A stretch of 34,698 nt of DNA from a bacterium (GCA_036170295.1 JAVHOY010000190.1:1-34698), one strand, 5' to 3'; numbered from the stretch's first letter, positions 885 to 28,713 are shown. Translations and numbers: made by a program. Notes: a model not told the origin generated them from the letters alone.

Positions 885-1641
885 ATTCTATAAGTTCCTC
901 GGCAAGAATGCGGTATTGCGTCGAGCCGCGTGTGTTTGGTTTGTAGCGCGAGATGGGCATGCCCGCGATGGGGCTTTCGCGTAACTTGGTGTCTATTTCG
1001 ATCACGGTGTCAAACACGCCTGCGCCAAATGTCGAGCGCAGTTGTTCGTGGATGTTGCGATGTGTGCGATTTCTTTTGTCCAACATGGTGACGAGGATGC
1101 GATACGCGAGGTTTGAGTTGCCGCCTTCGCGCACGTTGCGGATGAGCGACATCATATTTCGCAGCGCATACGCGGAGAAGTATTCCGCTTGCGTGGGAAT
1201 GAGCAACAGGTCGGCGGCGGTCAGCGCGTTTTGAGTGATGGCGCCGATGGCGGGCGGGCAATCCAGCAGAATAAAATCGTAAGGCGCGGTTTCTAATAGG
1301 GTTGTGATTGCGCGTTGCAAGATGTTTGTGTAGTTTGTCCGCACGGGCAGATATTGTTCGCAGGTTTCAATGCGCGCGCTGGATTGCACAAGGTCGAGGT
1401 TTTCCACATCCGTTTTATAGCGCACGTTTGCCAGCGGTATATTATCCAGCAAAACTTCGCTGGAGGTGTGTTCGGCTTCGCTGGGTTCAAAACCGAGCGA
1501 GAGCGTCAGGTTGGCTTGCGCGTCAAGGTCTATTAATAAAACGCGATGCCCCATATCTACCAGCGCGGCGCCCAGCGAGAGCGTTGTTGTGGTTTTTGCC
1601 ACCCCGCCTTTTTCATTGGATACGGCGATTATCTTTAACAT
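850..1641 (-). CDS. Orphan ParA/Soj/MinD-family ATPase
   Basis: Deviant Walker A KGGVAKTTT, IDLDAQANL, Walker B LDCPP, TMLDKR and a C-terminal RESP..G.PI..Y.P..RG...Y motif; 263 aa; no parB next to it. Confidence 0.93.
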   Translation of the reverse strand: MLKIIAVSNEKGGVAKTTTTLSLGAALVDMGHRVLLIDLDAQANLTLSLGFEPSEAEHTSSEVLLDNIPLANVRYKTDVENLDLVQSSARIETCEQYLPVRTNYTNILQRAITTLLETAPYDFILLDCPPAIGAITQNALTAADLLLIPTQAEYFSAYALRNMMSLIRNVREGGNSNLAYRILVTMLDKRNRTHRNIHEQLRSTFGAGVFDTVIEIDTKLRESPIAGMPISRYKPNTRGSTQYRILAEELIEYAKETENKQTA

Positions 1642-1648: not shown

Positions 1649-4447
1649 TCAACTTGTGGGTTGATCTTTTTGCGGCGCGGTTTTCTTAGGAATAATTTCG
1701 ATGCGGCTTGCGCCTAACGCGCGCTTTAATTCTTCCACTGCGGTTTGGATCATTTCCTGCGGATCGTTCGTTCCGCGAATCTTGGCGGTGATGTCGGTGA
1801 CGAGTCTTTCGCGCGAGGCGCGCGAGGACGTTTCCTCAAAGAGGCGGGCGTTTTCCAGCGCAAGACCCAGCCGCTCCGTAACCGATTCAATGATGTTGAC
1901 TTGCTCCATAGATAACGCTTCGTTGTCTTTGTTTACGCGGATGTTCAAAGCGCCGATTGTCTGTCCGCGCAATTGAATGGGAACGGCAAGCGTATTTTTC
2001 CCATCTTCCAGAAGTAGGTCGGTTTCTGGCGCCGATTTGCGGGTGATGACCTTGCCGCCCATCGCGGTTTGATGATAGCCCAAAACATTTGAGGCGGCTT
2101 TACTTTGCCATGCCTCTGCAATATATTCGCTGAAAACAGACTGCGATTGAGCGAGGGCTTTTTTGCTTTCTTCCAGCAGACGCGCGTTGTCAATGGCGAT
2201 GGCGATTTGATCGGCGAGCAAACTAAGGACGGAAATATCCGAAGTCGTAAACGCGTTTGACTCCGTGCTTTGCACATCCAACGCGCCGATGACTTCTCCA
2301 CGCGCAGATAAGGGCAACGCCATTTCAGAGTGCGTTTCTGGCAGATCGGGATTGTTGAAGTATGCAGCGTCTGCGCCGGTGTCTAAAGCGATGCGCGGCG
2401 CGCCTGTGGCGGTTACGTTTCCTACAATGCCCGTCTGACCGACTTCGAGTTTATGTTCCCTTTTTAGCATCGCCTGTCCGCCGACGCTGTTGGCGGCGCG
2501 TAACACGGCGAAATTTTTATTTTCATTCAATAGAAATATGCCGACATGATAGAAGCCGAAGCGTTCGCTCACGGCGCGGGCGATGAGCGGTAGAAGTCCT
2601 TCCAAATCTTTTTCGGCGGAAATATAACGCGCGATTTCAGCGATGGTTTGCAGCTCGCTTGCGCGCTTTTCGCTTTGCGCCGTCGCCTTCTCCATTTCAG
2701 AAGTGCGTTGCGCGACTCTGTCTTCAAGGCTTGCGATCAATTCTTGAATTTCATCCGCCATACTGTTAAACGTTTTTCCCAAAACGCCGATTTCGTCGTT
2801 GGATTTGATTAGCGCTTTTTGTTTGAAATCGCCTGCGGAAATTTTTTCCGCCGCTTCCGTTAATTGAATGATTGGGTTGGTAAAAAAGTTTGAAACGAAT
2901 AAGGCGATGATTGCGGCAATCATCAAGATGATTGCGCTGGATGTGACTGTTACGCGGGTTTGATTCTGCGTCAGCGCGGCGATGGCGCTGATCGGTTGCG
3001 ACGCGACGACGATCCAATTTGTCCCCGTCACGCGCGCGGCGGCAGATTCCGCCAATTGTCCGCTATTCTCCAACGAGGGCGCTTGGAAGGATTTTTGCAG
3101 TTCCATTCCGCGCAACGCGCTGACAACTTCCGGCTGAGGCGCAAGCAGCGCGTTTTGATTGCCCGCTCTGAGAATATTTTTTCCTTGCAGGTCGAGCAAG
3201 GCTGCGTCGTCTATGTTCATGTAACTTTTATAGAGCAGATCGGGTTTTGAAGAATGACCCAAATTGATAAAATACGCGCTGTCTATGAGGAATGTATATT
3301 CCGTTTTGCTGGAGCGGCTTTGCGCGGCGGCTTGCAAAACGGACTGCAAAACATTAGCTTTATAAGTCGCCAGCAAAACGCCGATGACTTGCTGTTTTGC
3401 GTCGAAGATTGGCACGGCAAAATAAATAATGGGGGAGCTAAATTTTCTGGGAAACAACACGTTGGAAAGATAAGGTTTTTTGGCGTTAAGCGGCTCTGTA
3501 AAGAAAACCTGATTTTGATCAGACGAGTTGATGTTGGACGGAACGGTGTCAAGCAAGTTGCGTCCGTTTGCGTCGAGCAGCGCGTATGAAATAATATCTT
3601 CCGCGTCTTTTTTAGTAAAAGTTTGCAGGGCGTTCAGGGCGTGTTGTTCATGGTCGGAATTTTTTCTTTGGGAGGCTGGCATAGACACATAATTAATAAT
3701 ATCTGCGAGGCTCGCTTCCGTCGTCAGAATCTCGGATTGTTCATTGATGAAATCCGCTAAACTTCCGCTTGTCGAAGCGGCGCTCGCGCGCAAGCTCGCT
3801 TTGGCTTGATCTTGTAGGATAGTTTTGGATGTTATGTAAGTTTGCCAGCCAAGCATGATCAACGGCGTGGCGCTGAGGAAGAGAAACCCCACGATCAATT
3901 TTGTGCGTAGGTTGAATTTTGAAAATCGGCTTGCCACGATGGCGAGGTAGATCGCGCCGAGAATTAACGCGGTGGTCATGCCTGTTTCGGACGAAGAAAC
4001 TGCGGGAATTCTGTTCGTCGTATATTGATCAATAATGACTGTGACGATGGTTGCCAAAAAAGACAGCGCAATGACGCGCCCGATCCACTTGGGAGATAGG
4101 GCATAGACTGCAATAGCGGATATTAAAACAATGTTTGTAACGCCGTTGGGGATGGAGAGTCCTTGTTGAACAAAGACGCGACCAAAGATTGTAACGAGCA
4201 GCGCCGCAATGACCAACAAAACGCCCAGATCGCTTTTTCCGCGCCGACTCAGCCATGCGCCGACGAAGGCAGCCGCAATCGTGAGTAAGATCAAGTACAG
4301 GCTCAGCCCCAGCTGAATAGAGCGACTCACAAACATCGCGCTTGCCGCGATTAAGATAAAAATCACGCCCGTAGAAACGCAGATATTGAACGCATTTTTT
4401 GCGCGTTTTTCTAAATCGCTTTGGCTGTTTTCAATGGACTCTTGCAT
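1649..4447 (-). CDS. Membrane receptor: multi-TM + dCache + HAMP + GAF + split-GAF C-terminal module
   Basis: About 6 N-terminal hydrophobic helices; extracellular Cache-like region (ISYALLDANG...IYFAVPI...GVLLATY); HAMP (PIIQLTEAAEKISAGDF...DEIGVLGKTFNSM); GAF (FYHVGIFLL...ALDVQS...NARL). Confidence 0.88.
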   Translation of the reverse strand: MQESIENSQSDLEKRAKNAFNICVSTGVIFILIAASAMFVSRSIQLGLSLYLILLTIAAAFVGAWLSRRGKSDLGVLLVIAALLVTIFGRVFVQQGLSIPNGVTNIVLISAIAVYALSPKWIGRVIALSFLATIVTVIIDQYTTNRIPAVSSSETGMTTALILGAIYLAIVASRFSKFNLRTKLIVGFLFLSATPLIMLGWQTYITSKTILQDQAKASLRASAASTSGSLADFINEQSEILTTEASLADIINYVSMPASQRKNSDHEQHALNALQTFTKKDAEDIISYALLDANGRNLLDTVPSNINSSDQNQVFFTEPLNAKKPYLSNVLFPRKFSSPIIYFAVPIFDAKQQVIGVLLATYKANVLQSVLQAAAQSRSSKTEYTFLIDSAYFINLGHSSKPDLLYKSYMNIDDAALLDLQGKNILRAGNQNALLAPQPEVVSALRGMELQKSFQAPSLENSGQLAESAAARVTGTNWIVVASQPISAIAALTQNQTRVTVTSSAIILMIAAIIALFVSNFFTNPIIQLTEAAEKISAGDFKQKALIKSNDEIGVLGKTFNSMADEIQELIASLEDRVAQRTSEMEKATAQSEKRASELQTIAEIARYISAEKDLEGLLPLIARAVSERFGFYHVGIFLLNENKNFAVLRAANSVGGQAMLKREHKLEVGQTGIVGNVTATGAPRIALDTGADAAYFNNPDLPETHSEMALPLSARGEVIGALDVQSTESNAFTTSDISVLSLLADQIAIAIDNARLLEESKKALAQSQSVFSEYIAEAWQSKAASNVLGYHQTAMGGKVITRKSAPETDLLLEDGKNTLAVPIQLRGQTIGALNIRVNKDNEALSMEQVNIIESVTERLGLALENARLFEETSSRASRERLVTDITAKIRGTNDPQEMIQTAVEELKRALGASRIEIIPKKTAPQKDQPTS

Positions 4448-4549
4448 AAAATAAATTCCTAAATAGGTGTGCGGTTTTGACGGCGCAACTTAATGTATCA
4501 TCTTTTGGCGGCGACAGATGAATCTTCAACATTCTTACAACGCGTCTTT

Positions 4550-6409
4550 TTATTTTTCTGGCGCGGTTTTGCTTGGCGGTTGCAATTTGATAATCACATC
4601 CGCGTTTTCCAGCAGCGCGCTTAGTTCTTGGGCGGTGGTTTGCAGGATGCTTTCCGTTTGGAACGACGAACCGATTTTAGATGAAATATCGGAAACAACG
4701 CGCTCGCGTTCGGCGCGGCGGGAGGTCTCGTCGAACAGGCGCGCATTTTCAGCGGATAGCGCCACGCGCTCTGCGACGGCGTTGATCAGATCTATTTGAT
4801 CGGCGCTAACGTTTTCTTGACGCGGCATTTGCACACTGAGCGTTCCGATGGTTTCTCCGCGCAACAGAATCGGCACAGCGAATTCTGAGTTTTTATTATT
4901 TGAATCTGCCGCTTCTTCGTTTTCCTTAATCAATGTCGCGCCCAGCGCCGAGTAACGGAAGCCCGTAAATTTTTCTTCCTTGGGCAGGCGACTCCATGTA
5001 TCGCGCAGATATTGACGTTGAATCGCTTCGGCTTCGGCGAGCGTCTTTCGCGTTTGATCGAATAAGCGCGCGTTTTGAATCGCCAGGCTCACTTGTTCTG
5101 CAAGTCCGGACAACACTTCCACGTCTTCGTCTGAGAAGGCGTTAGATTCCGCGCTTTGAATATCCAGCGCGCCTTCGATCTTTCCTGCAATGCTCAAAGG
5201 CAGCGCCATTTCGGAGTGCGTCTCGGGCAAGTCGGGGTTGTTGAAATAGACCACGTCCTGACCCACATCCAGCGCGATGCGCGGCTTGCCTGTGCTGGTT
5301 GCGTAGCCGACGATGCCTTGTTCGCCGATCCTTAACTGATGACCGCGTTTGAGCATTCTCTTCCCGCCTTCGCTGTTTGCCGCCGCGAGAATGGCGTATT
5401 GGCTGTTGGCGTCGTTCAAGAAAATGCCGACGTGATAAAAGCCAAATTGCTGGCTGATCACTTGGGAAATGTAAGGCAACAATTCTTGCAGGCTGACGGT
5501 CGTGTTGATGGATTGCGAAACTTTTGTAATGGCTTCAAATTGTTTGGCGCGCCGTTCGATGTAAGCGACGGCGGTATTTAATTCGATCGTGCGTTCTGAT
5601 ACGCGCGATTCAAGACCGGCAATTAACTCGCGGACTTGTTTGGTTAGTTTGTTGAAAATATCCGCGATCACGGTGAGCTCGTCTGCGCCGCTGACGTGGA
5701 TGGTGTAAACGCCGCCTTTTTGGAAAGTCTCGGCGCTTGCGCGTAATTCAGCCAAAGGGCGGGTGATGCTGAGCGCGATCAGCGTGGAAGCCGTAAGCGC
5801 CAGGAAAAAACCGACGATGACCATGATCAACCCGACGCGACCGCTTTGCTGCGCGTCGTTAAATACTTCGTCGTTTGTTTTAGTAACTTGCGCGACGTTG
5901 TCGTTGACCACTAGCTCAAGCCGAGCGCTAATGTCGTTTCCCAATTTTTGCAGTTGAGACGCCAAACGTGTCGCGTCGCTGTTATTTCCCGCCATGTGCG
6001 CTTTTTGCAGGTCTGTGATTTGCTGTCGGTAGATTTCCAACGAGCGGATAATCTGGTCAATGGTTTGGGTTTGCGTCGCGTTGGTTGCAAGGCTTTTTGC
6101 TTCTTTTAGATTTCGCAGAGCTTGATTGCTGTCGTCTAGCGCTTCAAAGGGACTGGCGGCTAGGTCTTGAATATAGCGATTAAGATCTAATTGCGAAACC
6201 ACCACGCGCTGCGATGCAATCAAAAGTAGGCGTTCTATTTTTGTATCCACATTTGTAACTTGTCCAAGACGCGCCACCAGCGAGTTCAGGCTGAATAGAA
6301 TGATTGGCGCTATTGAGCCGGCAAGCAGCATGATCAGCATGAAACTGCCGATGATGCGTATGCGTACCGGTATTCGTCGTAAAAACTTGTCAAAAACCCA
6401 TTTAGCCAT
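4550..6409 (-). CDS. Membrane receptor: four-helix-bundle-like sensor + HAMP + GAF + split-GAF module
   Basis: Start moved to the ATG at 6409 (MAKWVFDK, AGAAGG upstream), which removes the overlap with the upstream gene. Two TM helices flank an all-helical ~150-aa region; HAMP and the conserved GAF follow. Confidence 0.85.
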   Translation of the reverse strand: MAKWVFDKFLRRIPVRIRIIGSFMLIMLLAGSIAPIILFSLNSLVARLGQVTNVDTKIERLLLIASQRVVVSQLDLNRYIQDLAASPFEALDDSNQALRNLKEAKSLATNATQTQTIDQIIRSLEIYRQQITDLQKAHMAGNNSDATRLASQLQKLGNDISARLELVVNDNVAQVTKTNDEVFNDAQQSGRVGLIMVIVGFFLALTASTLIALSITRPLAELRASAETFQKGGVYTIHVSGADELTVIADIFNKLTKQVRELIAGLESRVSERTIELNTAVAYIERRAKQFEAITKVSQSINTTVSLQELLPYISQVISQQFGFYHVGIFLNDANSQYAILAAANSEGGKRMLKRGHQLRIGEQGIVGYATSTGKPRIALDVGQDVVYFNNPDLPETHSEMALPLSIAGKIEGALDIQSAESNAFSDEDVEVLSGLAEQVSLAIQNARLFDQTRKTLAEAEAIQRQYLRDTWSRLPKEEKFTGFRYSALGATLIKENEEAADSNNKNSEFAVPILLRGETIGTLSVQMPRQENVSADQIDLINAVAERVALSAENARLFDETSRRAERERVVSDISSKIGSSFQTESILQTTAQELSALLENADVIIKLQPPSKTAPEK

Positions 6410-6429
6410 TTCTTGATACCTTCTTGATT

Positions 6430-7440
6430 TTAGGGCTTGGCTTGTTCCCAAAAACTATTGGTAAAAATAGTTTCTGGATTCGGCGTGGCGTTCAAAATCT
6501 TGTATGAATATAATGTGTCAATCACACGCAGTATATTTGCGCGATTTGTGTAGCCCAGCGGAAGCCCGCTCGCTTGCACAAGTTTGGAGATTTCCTTCAT
6601 CATTGCGAGCTGATGGTCGCGCGTTTGCGTGTGGCTGTCGTCGTATTTTAGAACAATATCCACCGCCTCTTCGGGATGGTCAACGGCGTATTGCCAGCCG
6701 CGCAGACTGGCGCGCAACATACTTGTGCAGAGTTGCGGATGATCCTTTGCGAATTGCGCGGAGGTGAACAGTACGTCCCCGGGAAAATCCAAACCGTAAT
6801 CTGCATAGTTGATAATCGTTAAATCTTCCGGCTTTATGCCGCTTTCGAGCACAGTGTAATATTCGTTGTAGATCATTGCCGAGGCGACGTCTAAATCGCC
6901 GTTGATGAACGCGTCCATGCTAAAGCCTTGAGAGACCAAAGTAAAGTCGTTGGGGCTGATGTTTTCCTTTGCAATCAGCGCGTCAAATTGCGCTTCCCAA
7001 TTTCCAAGCCAGATGCCGACTTTCTTTCCCTTAAAATCGCTTGGCTTATTGATGCCCGAACTTTTTTTTGCGAGCAACAGCAATCCGTTTGTTTGTTGGA
7101 TCTGCGCGATACTGATCAGATCGTTTGCGCCTTGATTGGCGACGATAATATCTGCAAGCAGATTTGTGCCAAATTGGGCGCTGCCGGCGCGTACCGAGTT
7201 GACTGGCGATATATCAGGTCCGCCTGGTCGGATGGTCAGGTCAATTCCTTCTTCCTGATACCAGCCTTTATCCAACGCAACGTAATATCCTGCAAATTGA
7301 GCCTGCGTGACCCATTGCAGATTGAGCGTTATGGGCGTTGTCGCGTTCTGCGTAGCGGTTGGCGTTTGGGCGCAGGCGGCGATCATGACGACACAAAGGA
7401 TCGTTATAAACAATCGAGTTAAATTTGAAATTTTCATCAT
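6430..7440 (-). CDS. NMT1/THI5-like substrate-binding lipoprotein
   Basis: Lipobox IAAC; family motifs LQWVTQAQFAGYYVA..KGWY..EG, DFKGKKVG and YGLDFPGDVLFTS. Confidence 0.88.
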   Translation of the reverse strand: MMKISNLTRLFITILCVVMIAACAQTPTATQNATTPITLNLQWVTQAQFAGYYVALDKGWYQEEGIDLTIRPGGPDISPVNSVRAGSAQFGTNLLADIIVANQGANDLISIAQIQQTNGLLLLAKKSSGINKPSDFKGKKVGIWLGNWEAQFDALIAKENISPNDFTLVSQGFSMDAFINGDLDVASAMIYNEYYTVLESGIKPEDLTIINYADYGLDFPGDVLFTSAQFAKDHPQLCTSMLRASLRGWQYAVDHPEEAVDIVLKYDDSHTQTRDHQLAMMKEISKLVQASGLPLGYTNRANILRVIDTLYSYKILNATPNPETIFTNSFWEQAKP

Positions 7441-7451
7441 GGTTTTTCCTT

Positions 7452-10286
7452 TTACGATTGTTGACTCGCTTCATCCGTTGAAGTCAATTTGAGGACGACT
7501 TCCGAGCCGGGCAATACCCGTCCCAATTCTTCCACCGCGATTTGCAATACGTTCTTCAAATTGATCGAGGAACTAATCTTCTCAGTCATGTCGCGGATGG
7601 TTTGTTGCTTGACTACCTGACGCTGCGATTCTTGAATGAGGCGCGCATTTTCCAGCGCAATGGAAAGGCGTTCGGAAATCGCTTCGACCAGGTTGATCTC
7701 GTCCGCGTTCCATTGACGGTCTTGCGTCGGCGCTTTGACATTTAGAACGCCGATCACTTGCCCGCGCAGTTTGATGGGAACGACGATGTACGGCTCTTGA
7801 ACGTTCGCGTCCGCGTTGATGTATAAAGACGCGCCGCTATTTGTGACGCGCCGAATTTCATCGCTTTCTATCGTCTCTTTTAATTTTGTTCCGCCTTTCA
7901 TGGTTTGGCGGTATCCGACTAGATTTTCTTCGCCGATGAACGTCGCCCAATCTTTTTGTAAATTCTGACGATAAAGCGTTTGAGTTTCGCTCAAGGCTTG
8001 TTGCGTTTGTTCAAAGAGGCGCGTATTTTCCAGCGCGATTGAAATTTGATCCGCCAAAATACTCAAATTTTTCACATCGCTTTCGCTAAAGGCGCTGGCG
8101 AGTTCGCTTTGCACATCCAATGCGCCGATGGTTTGGTTGCGTATTTTTAGCGGCAACGCCATTTCGGAGCGGGTGGTTGGCATGTCGGGATTATTGAAGT
8201 AAACGGAATCCGTTCCCACGTCCAGCGCGATGCGATGCTCGCCGCTTTGAGCGACGTTTCCCACAATTCCATGTCCTAATTCGAGTTTATGTCCGCGCGC
8301 CAACATTCTTTTTCCGCCTTCGCTGTTGGCGGCTTGCAGCACGGCGAATTGTTTTGTTTCCTCTATCAGGAAAATGCCGGTGTGATAAAAGCCAAAGCGT
8401 TCGCTGACCAAACGGGCGATGAGCGGCAGCAGAGTTTCGAGTTTTTGTTCGCTCGCGACAATTTTTGAAATTTCGCTAATCGCCTCGAGCTCGTTCGCGC
8501 GTTTTTCGCTTTGCTGCTGCGCGGCTTCAAGGTCTACGGTGCGTTCGGCGACGCGCCCTTCAAGGCTGTCCAGCGTCGCGTTTAATTCGTCAGTCATGCG
8601 GTTAAATGAATGAGAGAGCGCGCCGATTTCATCTTGCGTATGGATATTTGCGCGCGCGCTGATGTCGCCCGACGCGATTTGTTCCGCGACTTTGGTCAGC
8701 GCGACAAGCGGAGACGCGAGAATCTGCGCGCCGCCCAACGCCAATAGAATTGCCATGCCTGCCAGCGCTAACGAAATCAGAATTGTGTTGCGGGTTTGAG
8801 TTTTAATGGTCGCGGCGCTGCTTGTATAAGACTCGCGCACGAGGGCAATCCAATTTTGAGTTTTTAACTTTGCGCCGGTGTTGACGGTGTTGACGCCCAA
8901 TGAATCTGAATAGGCGTCGAAAAATGGAACGGCGTCAAGATGGTTAATGCCGTCTACGACCTTTGCATTCGTGCCGACCAGTACCTCTGCGGGCGTTCCG
9001 GGCGGCATTCTGCCTTCAGACTGAAACGCCACTACTTCAAGCGTGTTAAACGATTTGTACGATTTGAATAATTCGTCGCGGTTGCCGGTATAGGCAAGGC
9101 GCAGATAGGAGATTCGATCCATAAGCGTGACAGTGATATCGGAATCGTTTGGCGCAACCGCGCGCGCCATGCTTTGCAGAATGGTGGCGCGGTATTCGAC
9201 TCTCAGCACGCCGATAATTTGGTTGGCTGGATTTTTGATCGGCGCGCTGAAATAAATGCTCTTTTTTCCTCCGATGAATATCACATTCGACGCAAATGGA
9301 GCGCCCGTTTTTATGACTTGGGTGAAATAAATTCTGACGCTCTCGTCGCCCCCGATATGCTCGGCGGATGTATCCAGCAGATTTTTTCCCGTCGCATCCA
9401 GAACGGCGTATGAATCAATGAAGATTGGATCTTTGCGCTGAAATAAAGACAGGGTAATTTCGGCTTTGCTTTTTTCAACGCTGCTTTCGCGGTCTTGCGG
9501 CGCAAGCGACAAGTAGTCAATCAGCGCGGTTTGTCTCGCTTCGGTGCGGATAGAATCTGTTTGTTGAATATAAAAACTGTCAAAAGTCTCCGCTAGGCTG
9601 TTGGCAAGCGAGGTTAAGCGGTCATGGCTTTCTTGCGTTAGGGTTTGTGCGGTCACATAGTTGTTGTAGATTCCCAGAATGACGAGCGGGATGATTGTGA
9701 TCGTTGCAAATGCGAGCGCCAACTTTGCGCGCAATGTAAATTCATTGAATTGACGCGCAATAATGAAAATGAAAATCGCGGATAGGACGATGGCAAAGAC
9801 TTGTGTGTAGATCGGTTCTGTGTAAAAACCAAAATCGGGCAAGAGCTGATCTAAGACGATAATCAGCGCGCCGACGAGCAGCGACAGCGTATTTCCGCGC
9901 GTGGAATATTTCAACGGCAAGGTTGCCGCCGTAATGCCTATGCCAAGAATTGCGACAAGCGCGCCAACGGCGACGCCTTGTCCGTGACCAATGACAGGAA
10001 TGGCGAGCGATATCAAAAGAATGGACGTTAGCAAGAGCGCGCCCGCAACGGTGGCGCGCCCGCGCCATGCCATCCATGCGCTTATAAAGCTGATTAACGA
10101 AAGCAGGGTCGCGATGCTCAATCCCCAAATATTTACCGCAAATTTGTCGGCGCCTTGCGCGAAAAGGATTCCGCTAATCAGCGCAAACAGGGAACCAATA
10201 ATTACGCTGACCCAGATAGTTCGGGTTCGGCGCGTCTCTTCCTGTTTGATTGTTTTTTGTTCGGTTGCGTAAGTGTCGCTCATCAT
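7452..10286 (-). CDS. Membrane receptor: multi-TM + dCache + HAMP + GAF + split-GAF module
   Basis: Same architecture as 1649-4447, sharing SYA.LDA.G.NLLDT and IYF.API; HAMP (PLVALTKVAEQIASGD...DEIGALSHSFNRM); conserved GAF. Confidence 0.88.
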   Translation of the reverse strand: MMSDTYATEQKTIKQEETRRTRTIWVSVIIGSLFALISGILFAQGADKFAVNIWGLSIATLLSLISFISAWMAWRGRATVAGALLLTSILLISLAIPVIGHGQGVAVGALVAILGIGITAATLPLKYSTRGNTLSLLVGALIIVLDQLLPDFGFYTEPIYTQVFAIVLSAIFIFIIARQFNEFTLRAKLALAFATITIIPLVILGIYNNYVTAQTLTQESHDRLTSLANSLAETFDSFYIQQTDSIRTEARQTALIDYLSLAPQDRESSVEKSKAEITLSLFQRKDPIFIDSYAVLDATGKNLLDTSAEHIGGDESVRIYFTQVIKTGAPFASNVIFIGGKKSIYFSAPIKNPANQIIGVLRVEYRATILQSMARAVAPNDSDITVTLMDRISYLRLAYTGNRDELFKSYKSFNTLEVVAFQSEGRMPPGTPAEVLVGTNAKVVDGINHLDAVPFFDAYSDSLGVNTVNTGAKLKTQNWIALVRESYTSSAATIKTQTRNTILISLALAGMAILLALGGAQILASPLVALTKVAEQIASGDISARANIHTQDEIGALSHSFNRMTDELNATLDSLEGRVAERTVDLEAAQQQSEKRANELEAISEISKIVASEQKLETLLPLIARLVSERFGFYHTGIFLIEETKQFAVLQAANSEGGKRMLARGHKLELGHGIVGNVAQSGEHRIALDVGTDSVYFNNPDMPTTRSEMALPLKIRNQTIGALDVQSELASAFSESDVKNLSILADQISIALENTRLFEQTQQALSETQTLYRQNLQKDWATFIGEENLVGYRQTMKGGTKLKETIESDEIRRVTNSGASLYINADANVQEPYIVVPIKLRGQVIGVLNVKAPTQDRQWNADEINLVEAISERLSIALENARLIQESQRQVVKQQTIRDMTEKISSSINLKNVLQIAVEELGRVLPGSEVVLKLTSTDEASQQS

Positions 10287-10300
10287 CGCTCTCTAAAAAA

Positions 10301-11296
10301 TCATTTTGGTTGGGGAAGAAAATTTGGCGTAAAGATGGATTTTATATTCGGCTGGATGGCTAAAGCGCCGCTGGAGATTAAATAATCGGCGGTCTTTTGC
10401 GCTATGTTGAAAATCGAATTTGCTTCGCTGACAGGCAGCGTATACATGGCGAGATTGTCTTCGTAGGTATACACCTTTAAGTTTGGGTCTGCTTCAATTT
10501 GTTTCACGGGAACGCCGAGATATTTTGCGGCGATCTGACGGGTTTCTTCCGGGTGATTGAAGCGGTAGGCAATCGCCTTAAACATCGCGCGCATATACGC
10601 TTGAATATCTTGAGGACGCTGGTCCACGACGTTTTGGCGAAAAGCGATTGTATCGGGAAAGAGTCGCAGCGTATTATCCGTTGGATAAAGAATGTGCGCG
10701 CCCTCCTTGATGGCTTGCGACGTGGACGGCTCCCAAGTGAACGCCGCCTGAATTTCATTTTTTGACAACGCTTCAGAGACTTGTTCTGGGTTGACGTTGC
10801 GAATATTAACATCCGCCGCGCTCATGCCTGCGGAGGCGAGCATTTCTCTGACCAGCAATTCATACTGCGTTCCCACGAGCGTCCCAACGGTTTTTCCCTT
10901 TAGGTCGCTGATGGATTTTATTTCTGGCTGCGCGACGATGGGCATGTAGCCGCCGTCGTCTTCCAAGCCGATCACTTTTAGTGGGGCATGACGGTTAATG
11001 CTCATCACATCGCCGATGGCGAGATAGGCGGCGTCAATCTGTCCAGCGGCGAGGTCTGAAAAAGCGTCGGTATATATTTTATAGTACACAGGCTCGACCT
11101 CAACGCCTTCTTCCGCAAAAAAACCTTTTTCTTTAGCGACCAATAATGTGTAATCGCCCCACCAGAACGTATATTCCACGCGGAGCGGAGGCAACGGGCG
11201 CGGCGTGGGTTGAAACAACGAGCCGCCGCTGCATGACGCGAGCGCGGAAACAATCAATGCGAGTAAAACGATTTTTACGAGAATGGCGCTTTTCAT
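10301..11296 (-). CDS. SsuA/NrtA/TauA-like (NMT1 superfamily) substrate-binding lipoprotein
   Basis: Lipobox LASC; motifs VAKEKGFFAEEGVEVE, IKSISDLKGKTVG and AAFTWEP. Confidence 0.87.
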   Translation of the reverse strand: MKSAILVKIVLLALIVSALASCSGGSLFQPTPRPLPPLRVEYTFWWGDYTLLVAKEKGFFAEEGVEVEPVYYKIYTDAFSDLAAGQIDAAYLAIGDVMSINRHAPLKVIGLEDDGGYMPIVAQPEIKSISDLKGKTVGTLVGTQYELLVREMLASAGMSAADVNIRNVNPEQVSEALSKNEIQAAFTWEPSTSQAIKEGAHILYPTDNTLRLFPDTIAFRQNVVDQRPQDIQAYMRAMFKAIAYRFNHPEETRQIAAKYLGVPVKQIEADPNLKVYTYEDNLAMYTLPVSEANSIFNIAQKTADYLISSGALAIQPNIKSIFTPNFLPQPK

Positions 11297-11302
11297 TATG
11301 AT

Positions 11303-13249: not shown

Positions 13250-13331
13250 AGGTTTGCTCCTTGCTGAAAACTCTGTTCTTTTTTGCGGAAGAATTTATAA
13301 AATTGGCAAGCATAAAAATAACTCCTGCGAC

Positions 13332-16262: not shown

Positions 16263-16264
16263 AG

Positions 16265-18007: not shown

Positions 18008-18018
18008 GGTCTTCTCTT

Positions 18019-19431: not shown

Positions 19432-19474
19432 AATTTTCCTGACGAGCTAATTTATACCTGTATCTTCAATGCGA

Positions 19475-21841: not shown

Positions 21842-21849
21842 TAAATTCC

Positions 21850-23574
21850 TTAATTCACTTCAACGCCCTCTTCGGATGAAGACGGCGTTTCTATTTGAAT
21901 AAAGGCGCGTTTTGCTCCTAGTGTGCGTCCAATTTCCTGAATGGCGGTTTTCAGGATGCGTTCAAAATTTGTGGATTCGCCAATGCGCGCCGTGACTTGC
22001 GCCATGACTTGTTCCTGCTCGGCGCGGCGTTCTGTCGCTTCAAAGAGGCGCGCGTTTTCAAGCGCCAGCGCGGCGCGCTCCGAAACCGATTGCGCCATAG
22101 CGATTTCATTTTCGCTCCATTTTCTGTTTTCTTCTGCCGCTTCAATTTGAATGTAGCCGATCACATGGTCGCGGACTTTGACGGGAATAGCCAGCGTTGG
22201 GTGCGCGTCTTTGGACAAAGGCAGGGCAATCGCTTTGCCCGACGCGACTGCCTGCTCCACAACGGGACTATGGATGCTTTTTGCCGACAAAATAGTTCCA
22301 TCGGCGAGGTAGGTATACCCGCCTTGTTCTTTGTGGATTATATATTCGCCTTGTTGTTGCGAAGCGCTCGGCGACGCATTTTGGCTTCCGCTCATATTTT
22401 GAACGACGAGCGCGATCTGATTAGCAAGCGCGGTAAAAGTATGCGTATCTTCCTCGCTGAATGCGGAAGGAAAAACGCTTTGCACATCCAACGCCCCGAT
22501 GACTTCATATCCAATTTTGAGCGGCAACGCCATTTCAGATTGCGTGTCGGGCAAATCGGGATTATTGAAGAAGACCGCGTCTGCGCCGGTAGATAACGCA
22601 ATGCGCGGATAACCGCTTTGTGCCACATATCCCACGATGCCCGCGCCGCCGACTTTTAATTGATGATGACGTTCCAGCATCGCCTGTCCGCCTTTACTGT
22701 TTGCGGCGCGCAGTTCCGCGTATTGACGATTTTTATCGAGTAGAAAGATGCCGACGTGATAGAACCCAAGTTTTTCACTGACGATCTGCGCGATGTGCGC
22801 GAACAAACCCTCTGGATTTTTTGCAATGCCCGCTGAAATTTCCTGCGAAAGTTCGGCGATGACGCGCAGTCGCGTCGCGTACGCTTGACTCTGTTGGTTG
22901 GCAGATTCTATTTCTTGGGCATGTTCGGCGTTGCGCTTTTCAAGATATGTTTTGGCGTTTTTAATTTCATTATCTTTTGCGCGAGATTCGCTTAAGAAGG
23001 ACTTCTCAAGATTGGCGCGCGTCACATTCGTGCCGTATAAAATTGCGCTTACGGATAAGATCGCGCTGCCAATCAACGTGGAATTATCCGTCATGATTGT
23101 CGGCTGCGAATAGTATGGCGCTAAAAAAGCCGCCAGAGTTGTTAAGCACGCGAAGATTGCAAATGTATTTTGACTGGTAATCGCATTTGTCACGATCAAC
23201 GCTGCGGGGACGATCGCTAAAATCGTAATTGAATAATTGTTGACGTAGCCAAAATATAAAGATATATACGCGACCGAAAGAATGCCTAATGAGAATAAGA
23301 ACACACCCACGCGCGGATATTTTGATTTGCCCAGCAGGAACGCGCCGATTGAAACGACAAGCATGAATAAAAAGTCTTTCAGCGCGTTGTATTGGACGAT
23401 CAAGCCGACGATCAATAGAATCGTAAAGAGAAGCGCAATGGCGTTCAGCGCTTGCGCGCGTCTTCTTTGACTGAGATCGGCGACGACCGCGTGAGGAGCG
23501 ACGACTCTCTCTCCGAACAGCGCGATGCGTTCGATGAGAGTTTGATCGTTCTTGGGCGTTTGCAAATTCGACAT
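21850..23574 (-). CDS. Membrane receptor: multi-TM intramembrane sensor + GAF + split-GAF module
   Basis: About 5-6 TM helices, a coiled coil, and the conserved GAF (FYHVGIFLLD...FFNNPDLP...ALDVQS). Confidence 0.86.
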   Translation of the reverse strand: MSNLQTPKNDQTLIERIALFGERVVAPHAVVADLSQRRRAQALNAIALLFTILLIVGLIVQYNALKDFLFMLVVSIGAFLLGKSKYPRVGVFLFSLGILSVAYISLYFGYVNNYSITILAIVPAALIVTNAITSQNTFAIFACLTTLAAFLAPYYSQPTIMTDNSTLIGSAILSVSAILYGTNVTRANLEKSFLSESRAKDNEIKNAKTYLEKRNAEHAQEIESANQQSQAYATRLRVIAELSQEISAGIAKNPEGLFAHIAQIVSEKLGFYHVGIFLLDKNRQYAELRAANSKGGQAMLERHHQLKVGGAGIVGYVAQSGYPRIALSTGADAVFFNNPDLPDTQSEMALPLKIGYEVIGALDVQSVFPSAFSEEDTHTFTALANQIALVVQNMSGSQNASPSASQQQGEYIIHKEQGGYTYLADGTILSAKSIHSPVVEQAVASGKAIALPLSKDAHPTLAIPVKVRDHVIGYIQIEAAEENRKWSENEIAMAQSVSERAALALENARLFEATERRAEQEQVMAQVTARIGESTNFERILKTAIQEIGRTLGAKRAFIQIETPSSSEEGVEVN

Positions 23575-23576
23575 GC

Positions 23577-25424
23577 TTATTCTCTCGCCTTTCTGTTGGC
23601 GTTGAGCGCGTAATCTCGTTCCTGAATTTCAGACGGTTTTGATTCGTCGAATTGATCCAGCAACTTGAAAGTGACCGATACGTTGCCGATGGTTTGCCCT
23701 AATTCTTGCACCGTTTCGCGCAAAATGGCGTCGGTGTGCGCGGCGGCGCCAATCCGCGCGGAAATATCTGAAACGAGCGATTCGCGCGCGGCGCGTTGTT
23801 GCGATTCTTTGTAAAGACGCGCGCTTTCAAGCGCGCCGCTGATTTGATCGGCTAGCGAAATCGCTAAGTTAGTTTCATCCTGCGTCCACGCTTCCGCGAT
23901 CTCGGATTTTTTTAAGCGGATCGCGCCAATGGCTTGACCGCGAATCTTGACTGGCACACTGATGGTTAAGTTGTCCGCGCCAGCCACCAGTTCTCCCGTT
24001 TCAAAGGCTTTGGCTAGGTTTGGCTCAAGGATATTGGAGTGCAATCGCGTCGTGCTGGGCGGCGTGGCGAGGAAGCCAATGCGCGGTTGACTGCGCAGCA
24101 TGGCGCTCCACGCTTCGCGGCTCATCTCGCCGTAAACCATGCGGGCTGATTCAAGCGCCTTCTCGGTTTCGCTGAGCAGGTTCGCATTTTGAAGCGCTAC
24201 GGCAAGTTGCTCGGCAAGAATTTGCAAAGTGGAAATATCCTCTTCTGAAAATGCCTGCGCCTCGACGCTTTGCACATCTAATGCGCCGAGAAGTTGTCCG
24301 CCGATCACAAGCGGCAACGCCATTTCTGAGCGCGTCTTAGGCAAGTCGGGATTGTCAAAATAAACGGCGTCCGCGCCGACGTCCAACGCGATACGCGCTT
24401 TTGCGTTTTGGGCGACGTATCCCACGATGCTGTTTCCGCCGACTTTAAGTTGATGCTTTCTCTTCAACATGACTTGCCCGCCTTCGCTGTTGGCGGCGCT
24501 TAAGACGGCGTATTCTTTATGTTCGTCAAGCAGGAAAATGCCCGCGTGATAATACCCAAAATTCTCGGAGATCAAATGCGTGGTTTGTTCCATCAACTCT
24601 GTAATGTCGCGGAAGGAGGTAATGGCTTTTCCAACGTCGGCGACGGCTTTCAATAAGGCGCTGCGCCTTTCAAGTTTAAGCGCGCGTTCCTCAACCTTGA
24701 CTTCCATGTTTGTAAACGACCTTTGCATGTTTGCGGAAATGGCTTGCAAGTGAGACGCAATTTCGGCAAATTCGCCGCGCAATCTTTTAGATTCAAGCGG
24801 CGCCGCTAGGTTGCCTTTCTCGATCTCGTTTGAGAAAGTTGTCAATTTTTTTAGCGGATTCGCGATGGATGAAAACGCGATAATCCCCGCGCCAATAGAC
24901 GCAATCATCAGCGCGATAGATAATTGGATAATGAGGCCTTGCGGAATCGTATTCAACGTCAGCGTTTTTTGCGCGATGCTGCCCACAGATACCGCCAGAG
25001 GTTGCGTGAGCGATTGGCGATAAGCGCCGATTAAGCGCCCGTTGCCCTCGTCAAGAATAGTTGTAGAATCGGTCGCCAGTAAATTTTGCAGAGTTTCAAA
25101 GTTGAAATCTTCCAGCGCGGAATGTCCGATTTTTTCATAATTTGAACTGGCAAGATAAGTTCCATTGCTCGCGATGAGGTAGAACGTATCTCCACTGGTC
25201 GTATTCATCATATCAAAAGCGATTTCGGATTCTTTGCCGGGGTCGGCTTTCATACGAGTCGCGTATAGACGCGCATGGTCGCGCATGATCTCTAATTGTG
25301 TGGCGACGGTATTTTCGCGTATTTGTCTTTGGGTGAAAGCGAAAACAATGCCGACGGGAATCAGCGATAACAGCAGAAATCCGATTGCGAGTCGCCAAAC
25401 CATTGATATTCTGAGTCGAGTCAT
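23577..25424 (-). CDS. Membrane receptor: small Cache/PDC-like sensor + HAMP + GAF + split-GAF module
   Basis: Two TM helices flank a ~130-aa alpha/beta region (FYLIASNGTYLASS); HAMP; conserved GAF; ATGA overlap with the upstream gene. Confidence 0.86.
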   Translation of the reverse strand: MTRLRISMVWRLAIGFLLLSLIPVGIVFAFTQRQIRENTVATQLEIMRDHARLYATRMKADPGKESEIAFDMMNTTSGDTFYLIASNGTYLASSNYEKIGHSALEDFNFETLQNLLATDSTTILDEGNGRLIGAYRQSLTQPLAVSVGSIAQKTLTLNTIPQGLIIQLSIALMIASIGAGIIAFSSIANPLKKLTTFSNEIEKGNLAAPLESKRLRGEFAEIASHLQAISANMQRSFTNMEVKVEERALKLERRSALLKAVADVGKAITSFRDITELMEQTTHLISENFGYYHAGIFLLDEHKEYAVLSAANSEGGQVMLKRKHQLKVGGNSIVGYVAQNAKARIALDVGADAVYFDNPDLPKTRSEMALPLVIGGQLLGALDVQSVEAQAFSEEDISTLQILAEQLAVALQNANLLSETEKALESARMVYGEMSREAWSAMLRSQPRIGFLATPPSTTRLHSNILEPNLAKAFETGELVAGADNLTISVPVKIRGQAIGAIRLKKSEIAEAWTQDETNLAISLADQISGALESARLYKESQQRAARESLVSDISARIGAAAHTDAILRETVQELGQTIGNVSVTFKLLDQFDESKPSEIQERDYALNANRKARE

Positions 25425-27106
25425 AATTTATTTTCGCCTTGCGCGTTTGTGTTTTTATCGTCCGCTTGCAGGAAGCCGACGCTGATCTCGGCTTCTTTTA
25501 GATCGAATACTTTACGCAATTCGATAGTGGCGTTGCGGACCACCGATTCAATATCCAGCGTTTCGCGCACACGCGATGAGACGTTGGCGATCATTTGGTT
25601 GCGCAGCGCGTTCTTTTGAGCTTCGTCTACGAGACGGCTGTTTTCCAGCGCCAACGAGACTTGATCCGCTATTTTTTCAACGAGCTCTTGCTCATGCTCC
25701 GACCAGCTGGCAAAAGCGCCTTTGCGGCGCAGTTTGATATTCCCAATCGTTTGCCCGTGCAGTGTTAAAGGCACATTCAAGTCGTCGGCGCTGACTGCGT
25801 CGCTGTTCTTTTGCGAAAAAATTGGGCGCACTCCCGCAGGCGTATATTGATAGGCGGGGGCATGACGTTTGGTTAATTTTGACCAAGTCTCATGCGTTTG
25901 GAAAGATAACTTGGTTTCTAATTCGTCGGCGATACTTTTTGTCTCGTTACTGAGGCGCAGATTTTCAAGCGAAATTGCGACCATATCCGCTACCGTTTGC
26001 AAGACTTCAGCGTCTTCGACGTGAAACGCTTGCGTTTGTTCCGAATGTAAATCCAACGCGCCGATCACCTCGCCGCGAACCGCGAGCGGCAACGTTATGC
26101 GCGCGCGGATGGTTGGGAAGTTCGCGTCGTGGGCGTAATTTGCGCTGTCTGTGTCTGAAATGATCTGGCGCTGATTTTGTTCAACCACGAGGTAAAGCGG
26201 ATTTCTTCTATTCGGTTCTATGTGAAATCCTTGACCGATATATTGCTTGCCGTTCTCGGAAGACGCCGCCTGAAGAAAAGCGGTATTCTTTTGTTCGTTC
26301 AAAATGTAAAGTCCAACATGCGAAACGCCAAATTGTTCCGCCATAAGATTTACGGTCGCATCCATTAATTCCGTTATGTCTTGAATGGCAGCCACTTGAC
26401 GCACCACATAAGACGCGGATACAAGCTGATCGTTGCGGTTGTTGATCGTCTCGGCGTATGCCGCTCTTTCTTCGCTGCGCTGGGCGGTTTGAGTTAAGGT
26501 TTCGTTTGCGACGCTGGTTTGCAGGTTTTCAGCCCAGACCTTTTCATTGTTTCCCCAGAGCCTTGCAATGAAAAAACTCGCTATAAGTATTAAGGAGACC
26601 GATCCGATATTTGTAAACAGTCGCATTAATTGAGCGCGTTGGAGCAGGGCGGCTTGAACCGACGCTATAGATTCGGTTAAGGTCTCAAAAGTTGGGTCCA
26701 CATTTTCGCTGTCTATGCGTTTAGCCCCCTCTACGTCGCCTGATTTTAGCGCCTGTATTTCTTGGTCTAGAAAATTCATATAACTTTTAAGCGTTTCTTT
26801 TGCGGCAAGCAAATCGGCGTTGCGCGGATTCAACGCAAGAACCTGATTGAGCGTTTCCGTTATTTTTGAACGGGTTTGGAACATGAGCTGCGCCGTCTCT
26901 TGGTCTACCGTTCCTTCGCCGATCATTTGCCATTCGGTGGCTGATATTTTGTAGGCAAGCGCTTGAACGGAAGCCAGCAGCGTTTCGGCTTGCCGACTCT
27001 GATCGACAATTTGGTTTAAGACGACGATGCCGATCGAGATGAATAGCGCGATAGCGACAAACGTCGCGTATTTTGCCCATTGGGGAAGTTGACGAGAGGC
27101 GGTCAT
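25421..27106 (-). CDS. Membrane receptor: four-helix-bundle-like sensor + divergent GAF + split-GAF module
   Basis: Two TM helices flank a helical region; no clear HAMP; GAF (SHVGLYIL...LPLAVRGEVIGALDLHS); ATGA overlap. Confidence 0.85.
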   Translation of the reverse strand: MTASRQLPQWAKYATFVAIALFISIGIVVLNQIVDQSRQAETLLASVQALAYKISATEWQMIGEGTVDQETAQLMFQTRSKITETLNQVLALNPRNADLLAAKETLKSYMNFLDQEIQALKSGDVEGAKRIDSENVDPTFETLTESIASVQAALLQRAQLMRLFTNIGSVSLILIASFFIARLWGNNEKVWAENLQTSVANETLTQTAQRSEERAAYAETINNRNDQLVSASYVVRQVAAIQDITELMDATVNLMAEQFGVSHVGLYILNEQKNTAFLQAASSENGKQYIGQGFHIEPNRRNPLYLVVEQNQRQIISDTDSANYAHDANFPTIRARITLPLAVRGEVIGALDLHSEQTQAFHVEDAEVLQTVADMVAISLENLRLSNETKSIADELETKLSFQTHETWSKLTKRHAPAYQYTPAGVRPIFSQKNSDAVSADDLNVPLTLHGQTIGNIKLRRKGAFASWSEHEQELVEKIADQVSLALENSRLVDEAQKNALRNQMIANVSSRVRETLDIESVVRNATIELRKVFDLKEAEISVGFLQADDKNTNAQGENKL

Positions 27107-28713
27107 TGAACTTTATCCTTTGTTTCGTCAGCGTCGTCTTTTTGATTCGCGTTCAATTCAATCACGATTTCCGCCGCTTCAAGCGCGCGCCCTAATTCTC
27201 GCGCCGTCGTTTGCAGAATACCGTTCATGCTGGTTGAAGCCCAAACTTTTGCGGTGATTTCGCTTGCCAGTCTTTCGCGCGCGGCAATGGATTGACTTTC
27301 TTCCACCAGACGCGCATTCTCCAGCGCCAGCGCGGCTTGCGTGGCAATGGCTTCAATGAGATTTTTTTGTTCGAGCGGCAAATCTTCCTTTGTTGCCATT
27401 TCGATCTGACCGATGATCTGATCGCGCAGAGTCAGCGGGATCGCAATTTGATTTTGTCCCGTTTCGTTCTCGCCCAGCGAATATTCCAGCCGCTGTTCAG
27501 CCGCAGTGGACGACCATGCGTTTTGTAAATATTGTCTTTGCGTAGCGCGCATTTCAGCCAGACTTTGCTGCGCTTCTTTGAACAAGCGCGCGTTTTCAAA
27601 CGCAACCGCAATTTCGTTTGCCATGTTTTGATAAGTCTCGGCGTCCTGTTGTAAAAAGGCGTTTTCCTGTTTGGATTGCAATTCTAACGCGCCGATGACG
27701 CGCTCGCCTATCGCTAAGGGAATGGCAATCTGAGATCGCGTATAGGGAAGCAAAGGATTGTCAAAGCGGACGGGGTTGTCTCCCGTATCTTGCGCGATGC
27801 GCGTCTGCCTCATGCGGATTGCCGCGCCGACGAGATTTTTTCCTTTGACGTCCATGCGATATTTATTCTCGCGCAACACTTTACCCGCGTCGCCGGTGGC
27901 TTCTTTGAGCTCAGCCCACCGTTCGGTGACGTCCAGTAAAAAGACGGCGGCATAGTAACATTCAAATTCGTCGCCGATTAAACGCGTCGCGCGCGCCAGT
28001 AATTCATCGGGGTCTAAAATCGAAGTGATCGAACGCCCAATTTCGTTAACTCTTCTTAACTTCGTCGTGCGCTCCAACACTTTATCTTCGAGGCTGCCGC
28101 GTTGCTTCTCTAATTCGTTCAGCGCTAAAGATGTTTGTTTTTGCGCCTCAACAAATTCTTTCTCCAGCCGTTGAAAGCCGAGAATAATTACCGCGCCAAA
28201 CAACAAGATGACGGCGGTTCCGCTGATCCAATCCGCGAGTTTTGCTTCGGCGATAGCGCTCAGCGCTTTGACGTCGCCGTTCAGCATTAAGTAGCCAAAT
28301 AGGATGCAGGTAATCATGATCAGCGCGGTGGCGATCATGCCGGCTCTTGGCGAGAGCAACATGGTCGCAAGAACGATCAGCGCTAAAAAGAAAATACTGC
28401 TGTCTCCCAAAATATTGTAGCGGATCAATTCGCTTACGCTGATGACGTAAACGCTAAGCAGAAACACTCCAATACGAATTTGGTATGGAAAGCGTATGAA
28501 CGTTACAACCGCGATCATTACATAAACTGCGACAAACACAGAATTGAGCGCGGCATCCCCCGTGCTGCTGACCGCTGAAACTAAAATGACGGCGCCAAAG
28601 ATAAGCGCTCCAATCAGCAAAGGCAAGACAAATCCCTCGCGCCAGTTTTTATACAGCGCGCGAGTCGCTTCATCCGAATTAAAGGCTTTAGGGAATGTGA
28701 ATTTGCTTGCCAT
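27103..28713 (-). CDS. Membrane receptor: multi-TM intramembrane sensor + GAF + minimal split-GAF module
   Basis: About 6 TM helices, LEDKVLERT helix, GAF (YYAAVFLLD...FDNPLLPYTRSQIAIPL...ALELQS). Confidence 0.86.
   Translation of the reverse strand: MASKFTFPKAFNSDEATRALYKNWREGFVLPLLIGALIFGAVILVSAVSSTGDAALNSVFVAVYVMIAVVTFIRFPYQIRIGVFLLSVYVISVSELIRYNILGDSSIFFLALIVLATMLLSPRAGMIATALIMITCILFGYLMLNGDVKALSAIAEAKLADWISGTAVILLFGAVIILGFQRLEKEFVEAQKQTSLALNELEKQRGSLEDKVLERTTKLRRVNEIGRSITSILDPDELLARATRLIGDEFECYYAAVFLLDVTERWAELKEATGDAGKVLRENKYRMDVKGKNLVGAAIRMRQTRIAQDTGDNPVRFDNPLLPYTRSQIAIPLAIGERVIGALELQSKQENAFLQQDAETYQNMANEIAVAFENARLFKEAQQSLAEMRATQRQYLQNAWSSTAAEQRLEYSLGENETGQNQIAIPLTLRDQIIGQIEMATKEDLPLEQKNLIEAIATQAALALENARLVEESQSIAARERLASEITAKVWASTSMNGILQTTARELGRALEAAEIVIELNANQKDDADETKDKVQ

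Follow-up and report, generated by a model that had tools for sequence, protein, structure and literature searches.

Split GAF domains in a receptor operon related to Anaerolineales and their predicted completion between the products of consecutive genes

Introduction

Known sensory hubs, the chemoreceptor arrays and the stressosomes, mix paralogous receptors on a common lattice. In the stressosome (RsbR/RsbS/RsbT), paralogues with variable sensors share a C-terminal assembly domain and one kinase, and the STAS domains are complete folds in a closed particle. The incomplete fold of a chaperone-usher pilus subunit is completed by a strand of its neighbour, resulting in an ordered polymer with an initiator and a terminator. 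In polyketide synthases (PKS) and non-ribosomal peptide synthetases (NRPS), the C-terminus of one protein pairs specifically with a part of the following protein, often in gene order. Here, a receptor operon on a bacterial contig (GCA_036170295.1, JAVHOY010000190.1:1-34698; this whole stretch of 34,698 nucleotides is referred to as the window) was analysed, in which 12 membrane receptors end with two halves of a GAF domain in permuted order. The order and the number of the receptors are seemingly fixed, and operon order would be converted into the order of a complex.

The locus resembles the tandem-GAF arrays (PDE2/5/6, CyaB2, Cph2, cyanobacteriochrome kinases) in that the receptor module corresponds to a junction of two GAF domains with the same linker length and that the completed unit is modelled as a GAF fold. 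In contrast to these arrays, the split falls between beta1 and the hairpin after it, the two parts of a domain belong to separate gene products, and the chain itself contains no output enzyme. With the chemosensory arrays, composed of methyl-accepting chemotaxis proteins (MCP), CheW and CheA, it has in common that a single operon encodes many variable, enzyme-less receptors with the same type of C-terminal module, along with one kinase, a ParA-family ATPase and stand-alone receivers; chemosensory arrays are positioned by ParC and PpfA (PMC10241942). The kinase of the present system is of the HisKA type and the coupling would be ordered and slot-specific, whereas the arrays form a mixed lattice. 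The MCP signal domain (PF00015) was absent from the Pfam matches of the 13 receptors and from all five searched relatives of 99-100% completeness, and no CheW was matched in the own genome (88% complete), including the window operon.

The pairing of a C-terminus with the next protein in gene order recalls the docking domains of PKS and NRPS, with no homology claimed, but in the present system a whole globular domain would be restored from its two halves, with an internal acceptor and in a sensory chain. The proposed completion of a fold by the neighbour, in a polymer whose order is fixed between an initiator and a terminator, is reminiscent of donor-strand complementation; here, however, the fold is another one, the donor consists of two helices and a strand, the assembly would be cytoplasmic and membrane-anchored, and no chaperone or usher was seen. 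Paralogues with variable sensors, a common C-terminal assembly module and one kinase are also features of the stressosome, but Pfam detected no STAS domain in this operon. The literature consulted, judged mainly by titles and abstracts, contained no account of a GAF system that is split or collinear, and within this scope the collinear pairing via split GAF domains is new as a wiring principle.

Results and discussion

Composition of the C-terminal module

The arrangement proposed here, with a probability of about 0.75, is an ordered chain from a head protein through the receptors to a histidine kinase, held together by the trans-completion of split GAF domains. Each tail would complete the core of the next gene's product, the core and the tail of one protein being joined by a predicted rigid helix. 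Following the order of the genes, the head, the receptors from R12 down to R1 and finally the kinase would thereby form a single tandem-GAF backbone, and many sensors would be funnelled into one kinase.

The 12 receptors (R1-R12) are encoded on the minus strand at 1649-28713. Each has one full GAF domain (Pfam GAF_2, above the cut-off) followed by a W-helix, a G(Y/F)x hairpin, a core (hVP strand, IGxL strand and final helix) and a C-terminal tail. The core is the C-half of a GAF domain and the tail is the N-half (alpha1-alpha2-beta1). The original prediction, made from the sequence of the window, had proposed a split or circularly permuted GAF domain within 1649-27600, which is the span of the 12 C-terminal modules. 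The module is real in all 12 receptors, but the motif strings given for it were too strict. G(Y/F)xY was found in 4/12 receptors and the W in 11/12, with R9 lacking it. The strict hVP-x-LRG was present in six receptors, the looser [VI]P[IVL]x[LIV][RHL] in all 12, and ALALENARL letter for letter in two. RER was located inside the tail of three receptors (R1, R2, R12), the pattern match of R8 falling outside the tail.

A hidden Markov model (HMM) of the tail was run against the six-frame open reading frames (ORFs) of the whole 2.3-Mb assembly. It matched the 12 receptors, which were the training set, the head and one gene of contig C36, always at the C-terminus, and nothing else, which indicates that the module is not a product of chance. 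Compared with solved GAF domains, the core corresponds to the last ~60 residues and the tail to the first ~45 residues. Core and tail together aligned to the tandem-GAF junction 8w26 145-244 with an ungapped linker. When the two parts were compared separately with the family's own full GAF domain by hhalign, the probabilities were 99.1 for the core and 93.9 for the tail, whereas the W-hairpin segment had no significant profile match to GAF strands. Thus, the original assignment of the middle part to the last strands and final helix of the fold, and of the terminal part to its first two helices and first strand, was confirmed together with their permuted order. The similarity of the N- and C-terminal elements places the module in the GAF superfamily. 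As the parts of a circular permutant fold together in one chain and this was not predicted for the receptor module (see below), the module is a split GAF and not a circular permutant. In several cores (R12, R5, R2, R11 and the kinase), the region that lines the pocket is shortened or absent, which makes ligand binding by these cores unlikely.

Conservation of the junctions between genes

Each core and tail was labelled by the nearest window type. In 15 operon stretches of the same genus, the junctions between a tail and the next core followed the window order in 145 of 145 cases, and the core and tail within one gene corresponded to the window pairing in only 116 of 134. The 18 mismatching genes are core-tail chimeras of four kinds (core 2 with tail 1, 7 with 6, 9 with 6, and 7 with 5), in which the break lies between the core and its own tail. 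The same preference was obtained without labels, by counting for reciprocal-best tails whether only the next core or only the own core agreed. The next core prevailed with 207 vs 2 within the genus (1722 comparisons), 805 vs 163 in mixed or across-genus comparisons (2048) and 266 vs 71 outside the genus (878); these comparisons are non-independent and exclude the genomes G032 and G045. Tail similarity correlated with next-core similarity at 0.66 and with own-core similarity at 0.50. Simple linkage would predict the opposite, since the own core is adjacent DNA and the next core is more than 1 kb away.

These results could also arise if the apparent conservation of the junctions were only the outcome of deletions in the conserved ALENARL stretch between core and tail, with a module that either folds in cis as a permutant or polymerises promiscuously. 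The core-tail joint is indeed a conserved repeat (24 codons, mean DNA identity 0.565, longest exact runs of 8.2 nt on average and 14 nt at most), and the number of independent events is low. The full GAF domain, however, would serve as a target just as well and is larger (164 codons, mean identity 0.535; the longest exact runs average 12.7 nt and reach 26 nt), and sensors are frequently swapped without a junction being broken, both of which make a recombination hotspot at the joint unlikely. The sensor N-termini are often exchanged at a fixed slot with intact junctions: slot 4 carries a sensor with two transmembrane segments (2-TM) in the window and a 6-TM sensor in 12 relatives. Slot 12 retains its MASE11 sensor in 12/12 genomes listed. 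In addition, covariation at GAF contact positions was confined to the next core and the cis fold was not predicted by AlphaFold2, both presented below. Such a recombinational origin is therefore considered extremely unlikely.

Covariation between tails and cores

Mean-field direct coupling analysis (DCA) was performed between tail n and core n+1 at an effective depth of ~118. The top pairs reached z values of 7.5, 7.4, 5.4 and 5.3 (231 pairs), compared with 3.7 in the shuffle and 3.5 with the own core, barring two shared-residue artefacts. By our reading, the top pairs trace a parallel contact of alpha1 with the final helix, an antiparallel contact of alpha2 with the final helix, a contact of the tail strand with the IGxL strand and one of alpha2 with the hairpin tyrosine. 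Among the top pairs are position 20 of the tail with position 81 in the core helix, and position 37 of the tail with position 21 in the hairpin. As a reference, the 20 strongest couplings between the N-half and the C-half were taken from 1221 intact GAF domains. The mean z at these positions was 1.25 for the next core (262 pairs; 0 of 20,000 random draws), 0.08 for the own core (262 pairs), 0.18 for the next-but-one core and -0.05 for the previous core (227 pairs each), and it ranged from -0.19 to 0.46 in eight shuffles. DCA within the module (378 sequences) resulted in no clear tail-core contacts, the overall signal being weak. The lack of such contacts is expected, because the partner is encoded by another gene.

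The genomic and covariation data thus point to partner specificity by gene order. The earlier proposal that the tail completes a neighbour's half-GAF is supported by the operon anatomy, the junction conservation, the covariation between genes and the natural fusions described below. The same evidence supports that the neighbour is specifically the product of the next gene and neither any paralogue nor another copy in a homo-oligomer.

Linker helix and models of the single module

In 378/378 modules, the N in NARL and the EL in the tail were at a distance of 40 residues. The same distance was determined for 769 of 1030 internal tandem-GAF junctions of poly-GAF proteins, and 125 more had 47 residues. 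These control junctions, as well as the fusions, were obtained from a search of 50% clusters, which was dominated by poly-GAF proteins. The AlphaFold2 model of the R3 module (124 alignment rows; predicted local distance difference test, pLDDT, 89.8; predicted TM-score, pTM, 0.68) contained one helix at 111-157, with block pLDDT values of 77-98 and 92 across the linker, and the tail strand was modelled as coil. The constant linker and this helix agree with a continuous helix from NARL to RER, which the original prediction had set as a condition, and the missing cis fold in the predicted monomer agrees with the consequence drawn from it, that the tail is unable to fold back on its own core.

The N- and C-terminal helices of GAF domains are parallel (PMC8199190). 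Together with a straight linker, this geometry would prevent folding in cis as well as a reciprocal swap or dimer, and would leave an open-ended stagger. A homo-polymer or a reciprocal dimer of one receptor was rejected on the basis of the helix geometry and the absent own-core covariation. In comparison with known structures (VIA), the unfused R3 module gave Z 8.6 and a root-mean-square deviation (rmsd) of 2.0 over 78 aligned residues, a partial coverage of the GAF domain; residues 26-156 of the model aligned on PDE6 283-461.

Natural fusions of a tail with the following core

Among the 150 best 50%-cluster matches, four proteins (P0079, P0092, P0083 and P0067) had a tail followed directly by the hairpin and core. 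P0079 consists of R11, R10 and R9 modules, and P0092 of R10, R9, an R8 core and an R1 tail; their fused junctions were in window order in 4/4 cases. When P0079 was used in a word-index search, the best 120 of 237 matches contained no additional fusion. The junction of the R9 tail with the R8 core of P0092 was modelled with a pLDDT of 83.8, the alignment depth being on the core only, and in this model the tail strand was formed. The best TM-score with Foldseek was 0.69, and 172 matches were obtained at E<=0.001, compared with one for the unfused module. The VIA comparison resulted in Z 15.6 and an rmsd of 2.8 over 148 aligned residues, covering the whole GAF domain. The complete fold of alpha1, alpha2, sheet and final helix was therefore found only for a tail and the next core in a natural fusion. 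At the level of a model, this shows the compatibility of a tail with the next core and not their binding.

The ends of the chain

The first receptor is preceded by the head gene, R13 (28715..32599, minus strand), which encodes a dCache-HAMP-multi-GAF protein with a terminal full GAF domain and a tail and lacks a core, as determined with the tail HMM and Pfam. Its tail (alpha1-alpha2-beta1; 28781..28885, minus strand; tail HMM 5.9e-08) has the R12 core as predicted partner. A core-less, tail-only head stood before the first receptor in 21 of the 23 fetched operons, and the remaining two stretches stop short of it. The first core was of the R12 type in 21/23 operons with a head, and the operons contained 3-12 receptors. 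In some genomes (L009:17641-17847 and L010 in G009; also G072 and G162), the head gene is without the membrane and Cache part, and its product, a multi-GAF protein that has the same tail, is largely soluble.

At the other end, the last receptor was followed by ParA and then by a core-first kinase in 23/23 fetched operons. The kinase of the window is a hybrid histidine kinase, of which the 5' part with the core and a PAS domain is present (3..884, minus strand), the gene being cut by the contig end. Its naked core (459..620, minus strand; core HMM 5.8e-11) consists of two strands and the final helix, has no GAF N-half and no hairpin, and lies behind a Pro/Lys-rich linker. Neither this core-only start of the kinase nor the tail-only head was listed in the original prediction. 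The tail of the last receptor was of the R1 type in 30/30 operons with a kinase, vs 1 of 198 other receptors. We infer that the head R13 is the initiator of the chain and the naked kinase core its terminator, on which the R1 terminal-type tail is predicted to dock. In relatives, the kinase continues as GAF/PAS-HisKA-HATPase-REC-REC and is followed by a PALP-REC protein; the kinase of the operon in G010 is GAF/PAS-HisKA-HATPase-REC, without the Hpt and CheW domains of a CheA-type kinase.

The ParA-family ATPase (850..1641, minus strand; Pfam AAA_31 4.1e-48) overlaps the kinase start by 35 bp. Its Walker A variant, NEKGGVAKT, occurred in 107/108 distinct homologues and has Ala in place of the Gly of the usual motif. 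The N-terminus of the kinase is a basic peptide of the K..KRLDKxF type (837..884, minus strand; assigned by motif). This motif, followed by a Pro/Lys-rich stretch, was present at the N-terminus of 23/23 kinases. A ParA-family ATPase is thus encoded within the operon of its putative cargo, together with a candidate partner whose N-terminus is basic and, judged from composition, disordered. By analogy with other ParA cargos (PMC10241942), the peptide is a candidate ParA-binding tag. A KRLDKxF-type peptide also starts the kinases of a second operon type, most of which are without ParA in the fetched stretch, and one ParA may serve several kinases.

Second operon type

The same genome contains a second split-GAF operon on contigs C36 (L182:2075-4851) and C31 (L183), in which a gene ending with GAF and tail comes first. 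It is followed by the gene of a soluble kinase that has three cores without a tail, and then by those of a PALP-REC protein and of a receiver. Loci related to it were found in 14/30 relatives. This operon type combines tail-only receptors with kinases or large receptors that have tandem tail-less W-cores, an arrangement that, from sequence, supports W-cores as acceptors. Some kinases (G021, G032, G045) offer W-cores only.

The tail-only receptors of this operon type would also fit an arrangement in which all tails compete for a single kinase core and the W-cores of the receptors are self-complete, truncated GAF spacers. Further points in its favour are the sheet formed without a tail in the monomer model and the good conservation of the hairpin-less kinase core, the alignment of 62 kinase N-termini having a mean column identity of 54%. 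It is nevertheless very unlikely: one single tail type precedes the kinase, the tails track and co-vary with the core of the next receptor, the fusions connect tails to receptor cores, and some kinases, as named above, have W-cores only.

A conserved, threonine-synthase-like PALP enzyme with an N-terminal Cys-rich stretch, fused to a receiver, is located behind the kinase in both operon types (L012:9357-11006 in G010; L182:426-2069). This PALP-REC protein is a possible enzymatic output.

Assembly and signalling in the proposed chain

In the ordered chain of head, receptors and kinase, the complex would be comb-like, with the backbone running along the membrane and each receptor attached sideways via its W-helix. 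At an estimated 4.5 nm or so per unit, the rod would measure about 50-60 nm. A conformational signal would pass along the shared helices to the kinase, upon which the two receivers and the PALP-REC protein would be phosphorylated. ParA may position the complex via the basic N-terminal peptide of the kinase, as it does for other cargos (PMC10241942). As the sensors are freely swapped at a given slot, the chain would be comparable to an ordered rack whose inputs can be exchanged. The wider proposal, held at somewhat better than even odds, is a programmed, stoichiometric receptor assembly line. In it, 4-13 membrane sensors and one kinase would be joined in gene order by slot-specific split-GAF completion to a continuous, input-integrating GAF backbone with a dedicated ParA, which would replace the chemoreceptor arrays in Anaerolineae. 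Motility as the output is a guess; two genes of T2SSF-family pilus platform proteins are present on contig C191.

The completed GAF domains might also remain pairwise, tail n and core n+1 forming short dynamic segments or having a role in co-assembly or localisation instead of signalling to the kinase. The genomic and covariation results all concern single junctions, and the geometry of a rod built from 13 units is demanding when the stalks of the receptors are unequal. Such short segments are still rather unlikely, as the receptors themselves lack an output domain, and the absence of broken junctions (0/145) together with the fixed initiator and terminator types suggests that the whole path matters.

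Several observations weigh against the ordered chain. The distance from the membrane to the core varies between the receptors, which are with or without HAMP, and a planar chain would therefore need flexible stalks. Judged from alignment ranges and general strand positions only, the W-hairpin of the unfused monomer is seemingly placed at beta1-beta2, and on this model a core may close its own sheet with no tail present. As few as four independent events may account for the 18 chimeras, the comparisons within the genus are non-independent, the slot types have a common history and the DCA depth is low. G032 and G045 have kinases with internal cores, their fetched stretches contain no ParA and their slot labels are not assignable. 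The fusions originate from metagenome assemblies (P0079 on one contig, P0092 in a cluster of three) and are possibly misassemblies; a fused sequence in GAF order would fold like a GAF domain by likeness anyway. The more distant P0083 and P0067 were labelled R10-to-R5 and R9-to-R5, with small margins, and are out of window order.

If the ordered chain is true, it explains why Anaerolineae, which are abundant in sediments and wastewater reactors, have rows of output-less 'GAF domain-containing proteins' while the five searched relatives are without MCPs. The tail-core pairs, about a dozen in number, would be natural addressable protein connectors, and these small and probably orthogonal split domains would become available for protein engineering. 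The system also gives a direct test of signal transfer along a long tandem-GAF rod.

Genes of the window and distribution of the module

The window is occupied by a single minus-strand operon with intergenic gaps of -59 to 102 bp. It comprises two receivers, the 1294-aa head, the 12 membrane receptors with two interspersed NMT1-type binding proteins, ParA and the 5' part of the kinase. The source genome is a 2.3-Mb assembly (88% complete), and its closest named relatives are Anaerolineales metagenome-assembled genomes (MAGs). Pfam found no kinase, cyclase, phosphatase or MCP domain in any receptor of the window. All features below are on the minus strand.

The first gene encodes the single-domain receiver REC 1 (33053..33445; Pfam Response_reg 7.6e-32), whose position is kept in relatives, and the second the single-domain receiver REC 2 (32608..33111; Response_reg 3.4e-20). 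After the head follows R12 (27103..28713), a MASE11 membrane sensor with the full GAF at 27574-28062, a short core at 27298-27453 and the tail at 27160-27291. Each of the other receptors also has a full GAF domain. The 2-TM sensors are R11 (25421..27106; W segment 25817-25951, core 25622-25783, tail 25484-25615), R10 with a weak HAMP (23577..25424; W segment 24039-24173, core 23805-23966, tail 23667-23798), R7 (18019..19431; W segment 18436-18570, core 18199-18360, tail 18061-18192), R4 (11303..13249; W segment 11720-11857, core 11483-11644, tail 11345-11476) and R2 with HAMP (4550..6451; W segment 4925-5062, core 4727-4885, tail 4589-4720). R9 (21850..23574) is a multi-TM sensor with a hairpin without W, the core at 22036-22197 and the tail at 21898-22029. 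R6 (16265..18007; W segment 16685-16822, core 16439-16600, tail 16304-16432) is also multi-TM and starts with the ATG at 18007, not 18283. R8 (19475..21841; W segment 19901-20035, core 19640-19804, tail 19502-19633) is a dCache-HAMP sensor. Multi-TM dCache-HAMP sensors are R5 (13332..16262; W segment 13686-13823, core 13500-13664, tail 13362-13493), R3 (7452..10286; W segment 7878-8015, core 7629-7790, tail 7491-7622) and R1 (1649..4447; W segment 2045-2176, core 1832-1996, terminal-type tail 1694-1825).

An NMT1/THI5-like solute-binding protein is encoded at 10301..11296 (Pfam NMT1 1.7e-26) and is likely an accessory ligand-binding input; a second one is located at 6430..7440 (NMT1 8.9e-52). 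Just upstream of the operon, the minus strand carries a perfect sigma-70 promoter (33678-33649), which is followed by a tRNA (33565-33636) and then by a terminator (33557-33533). The promoter was rejected as the direct promoter of the operon, since the tRNA and the terminator come in between. Downstream of the operon, many relatives (L008, L012, L082 and others) have an EamA transporter and a convergent cluster of a GAF kinase, a REC-kinase and a REC.

The module was found 10-28 times in 17/18 genomes of the same genus, G001 having one weak match. In the phylum, it was present in 22/251 genomes at E<=1e-25, the scoring being limited to 14 candidates per genome. One operon (L028) is located on a probably misbinned contig in a MAG with the label Bacteroidota, and another copy (L027) is split into many short ORFs, probably by frameshift errors of long reads.

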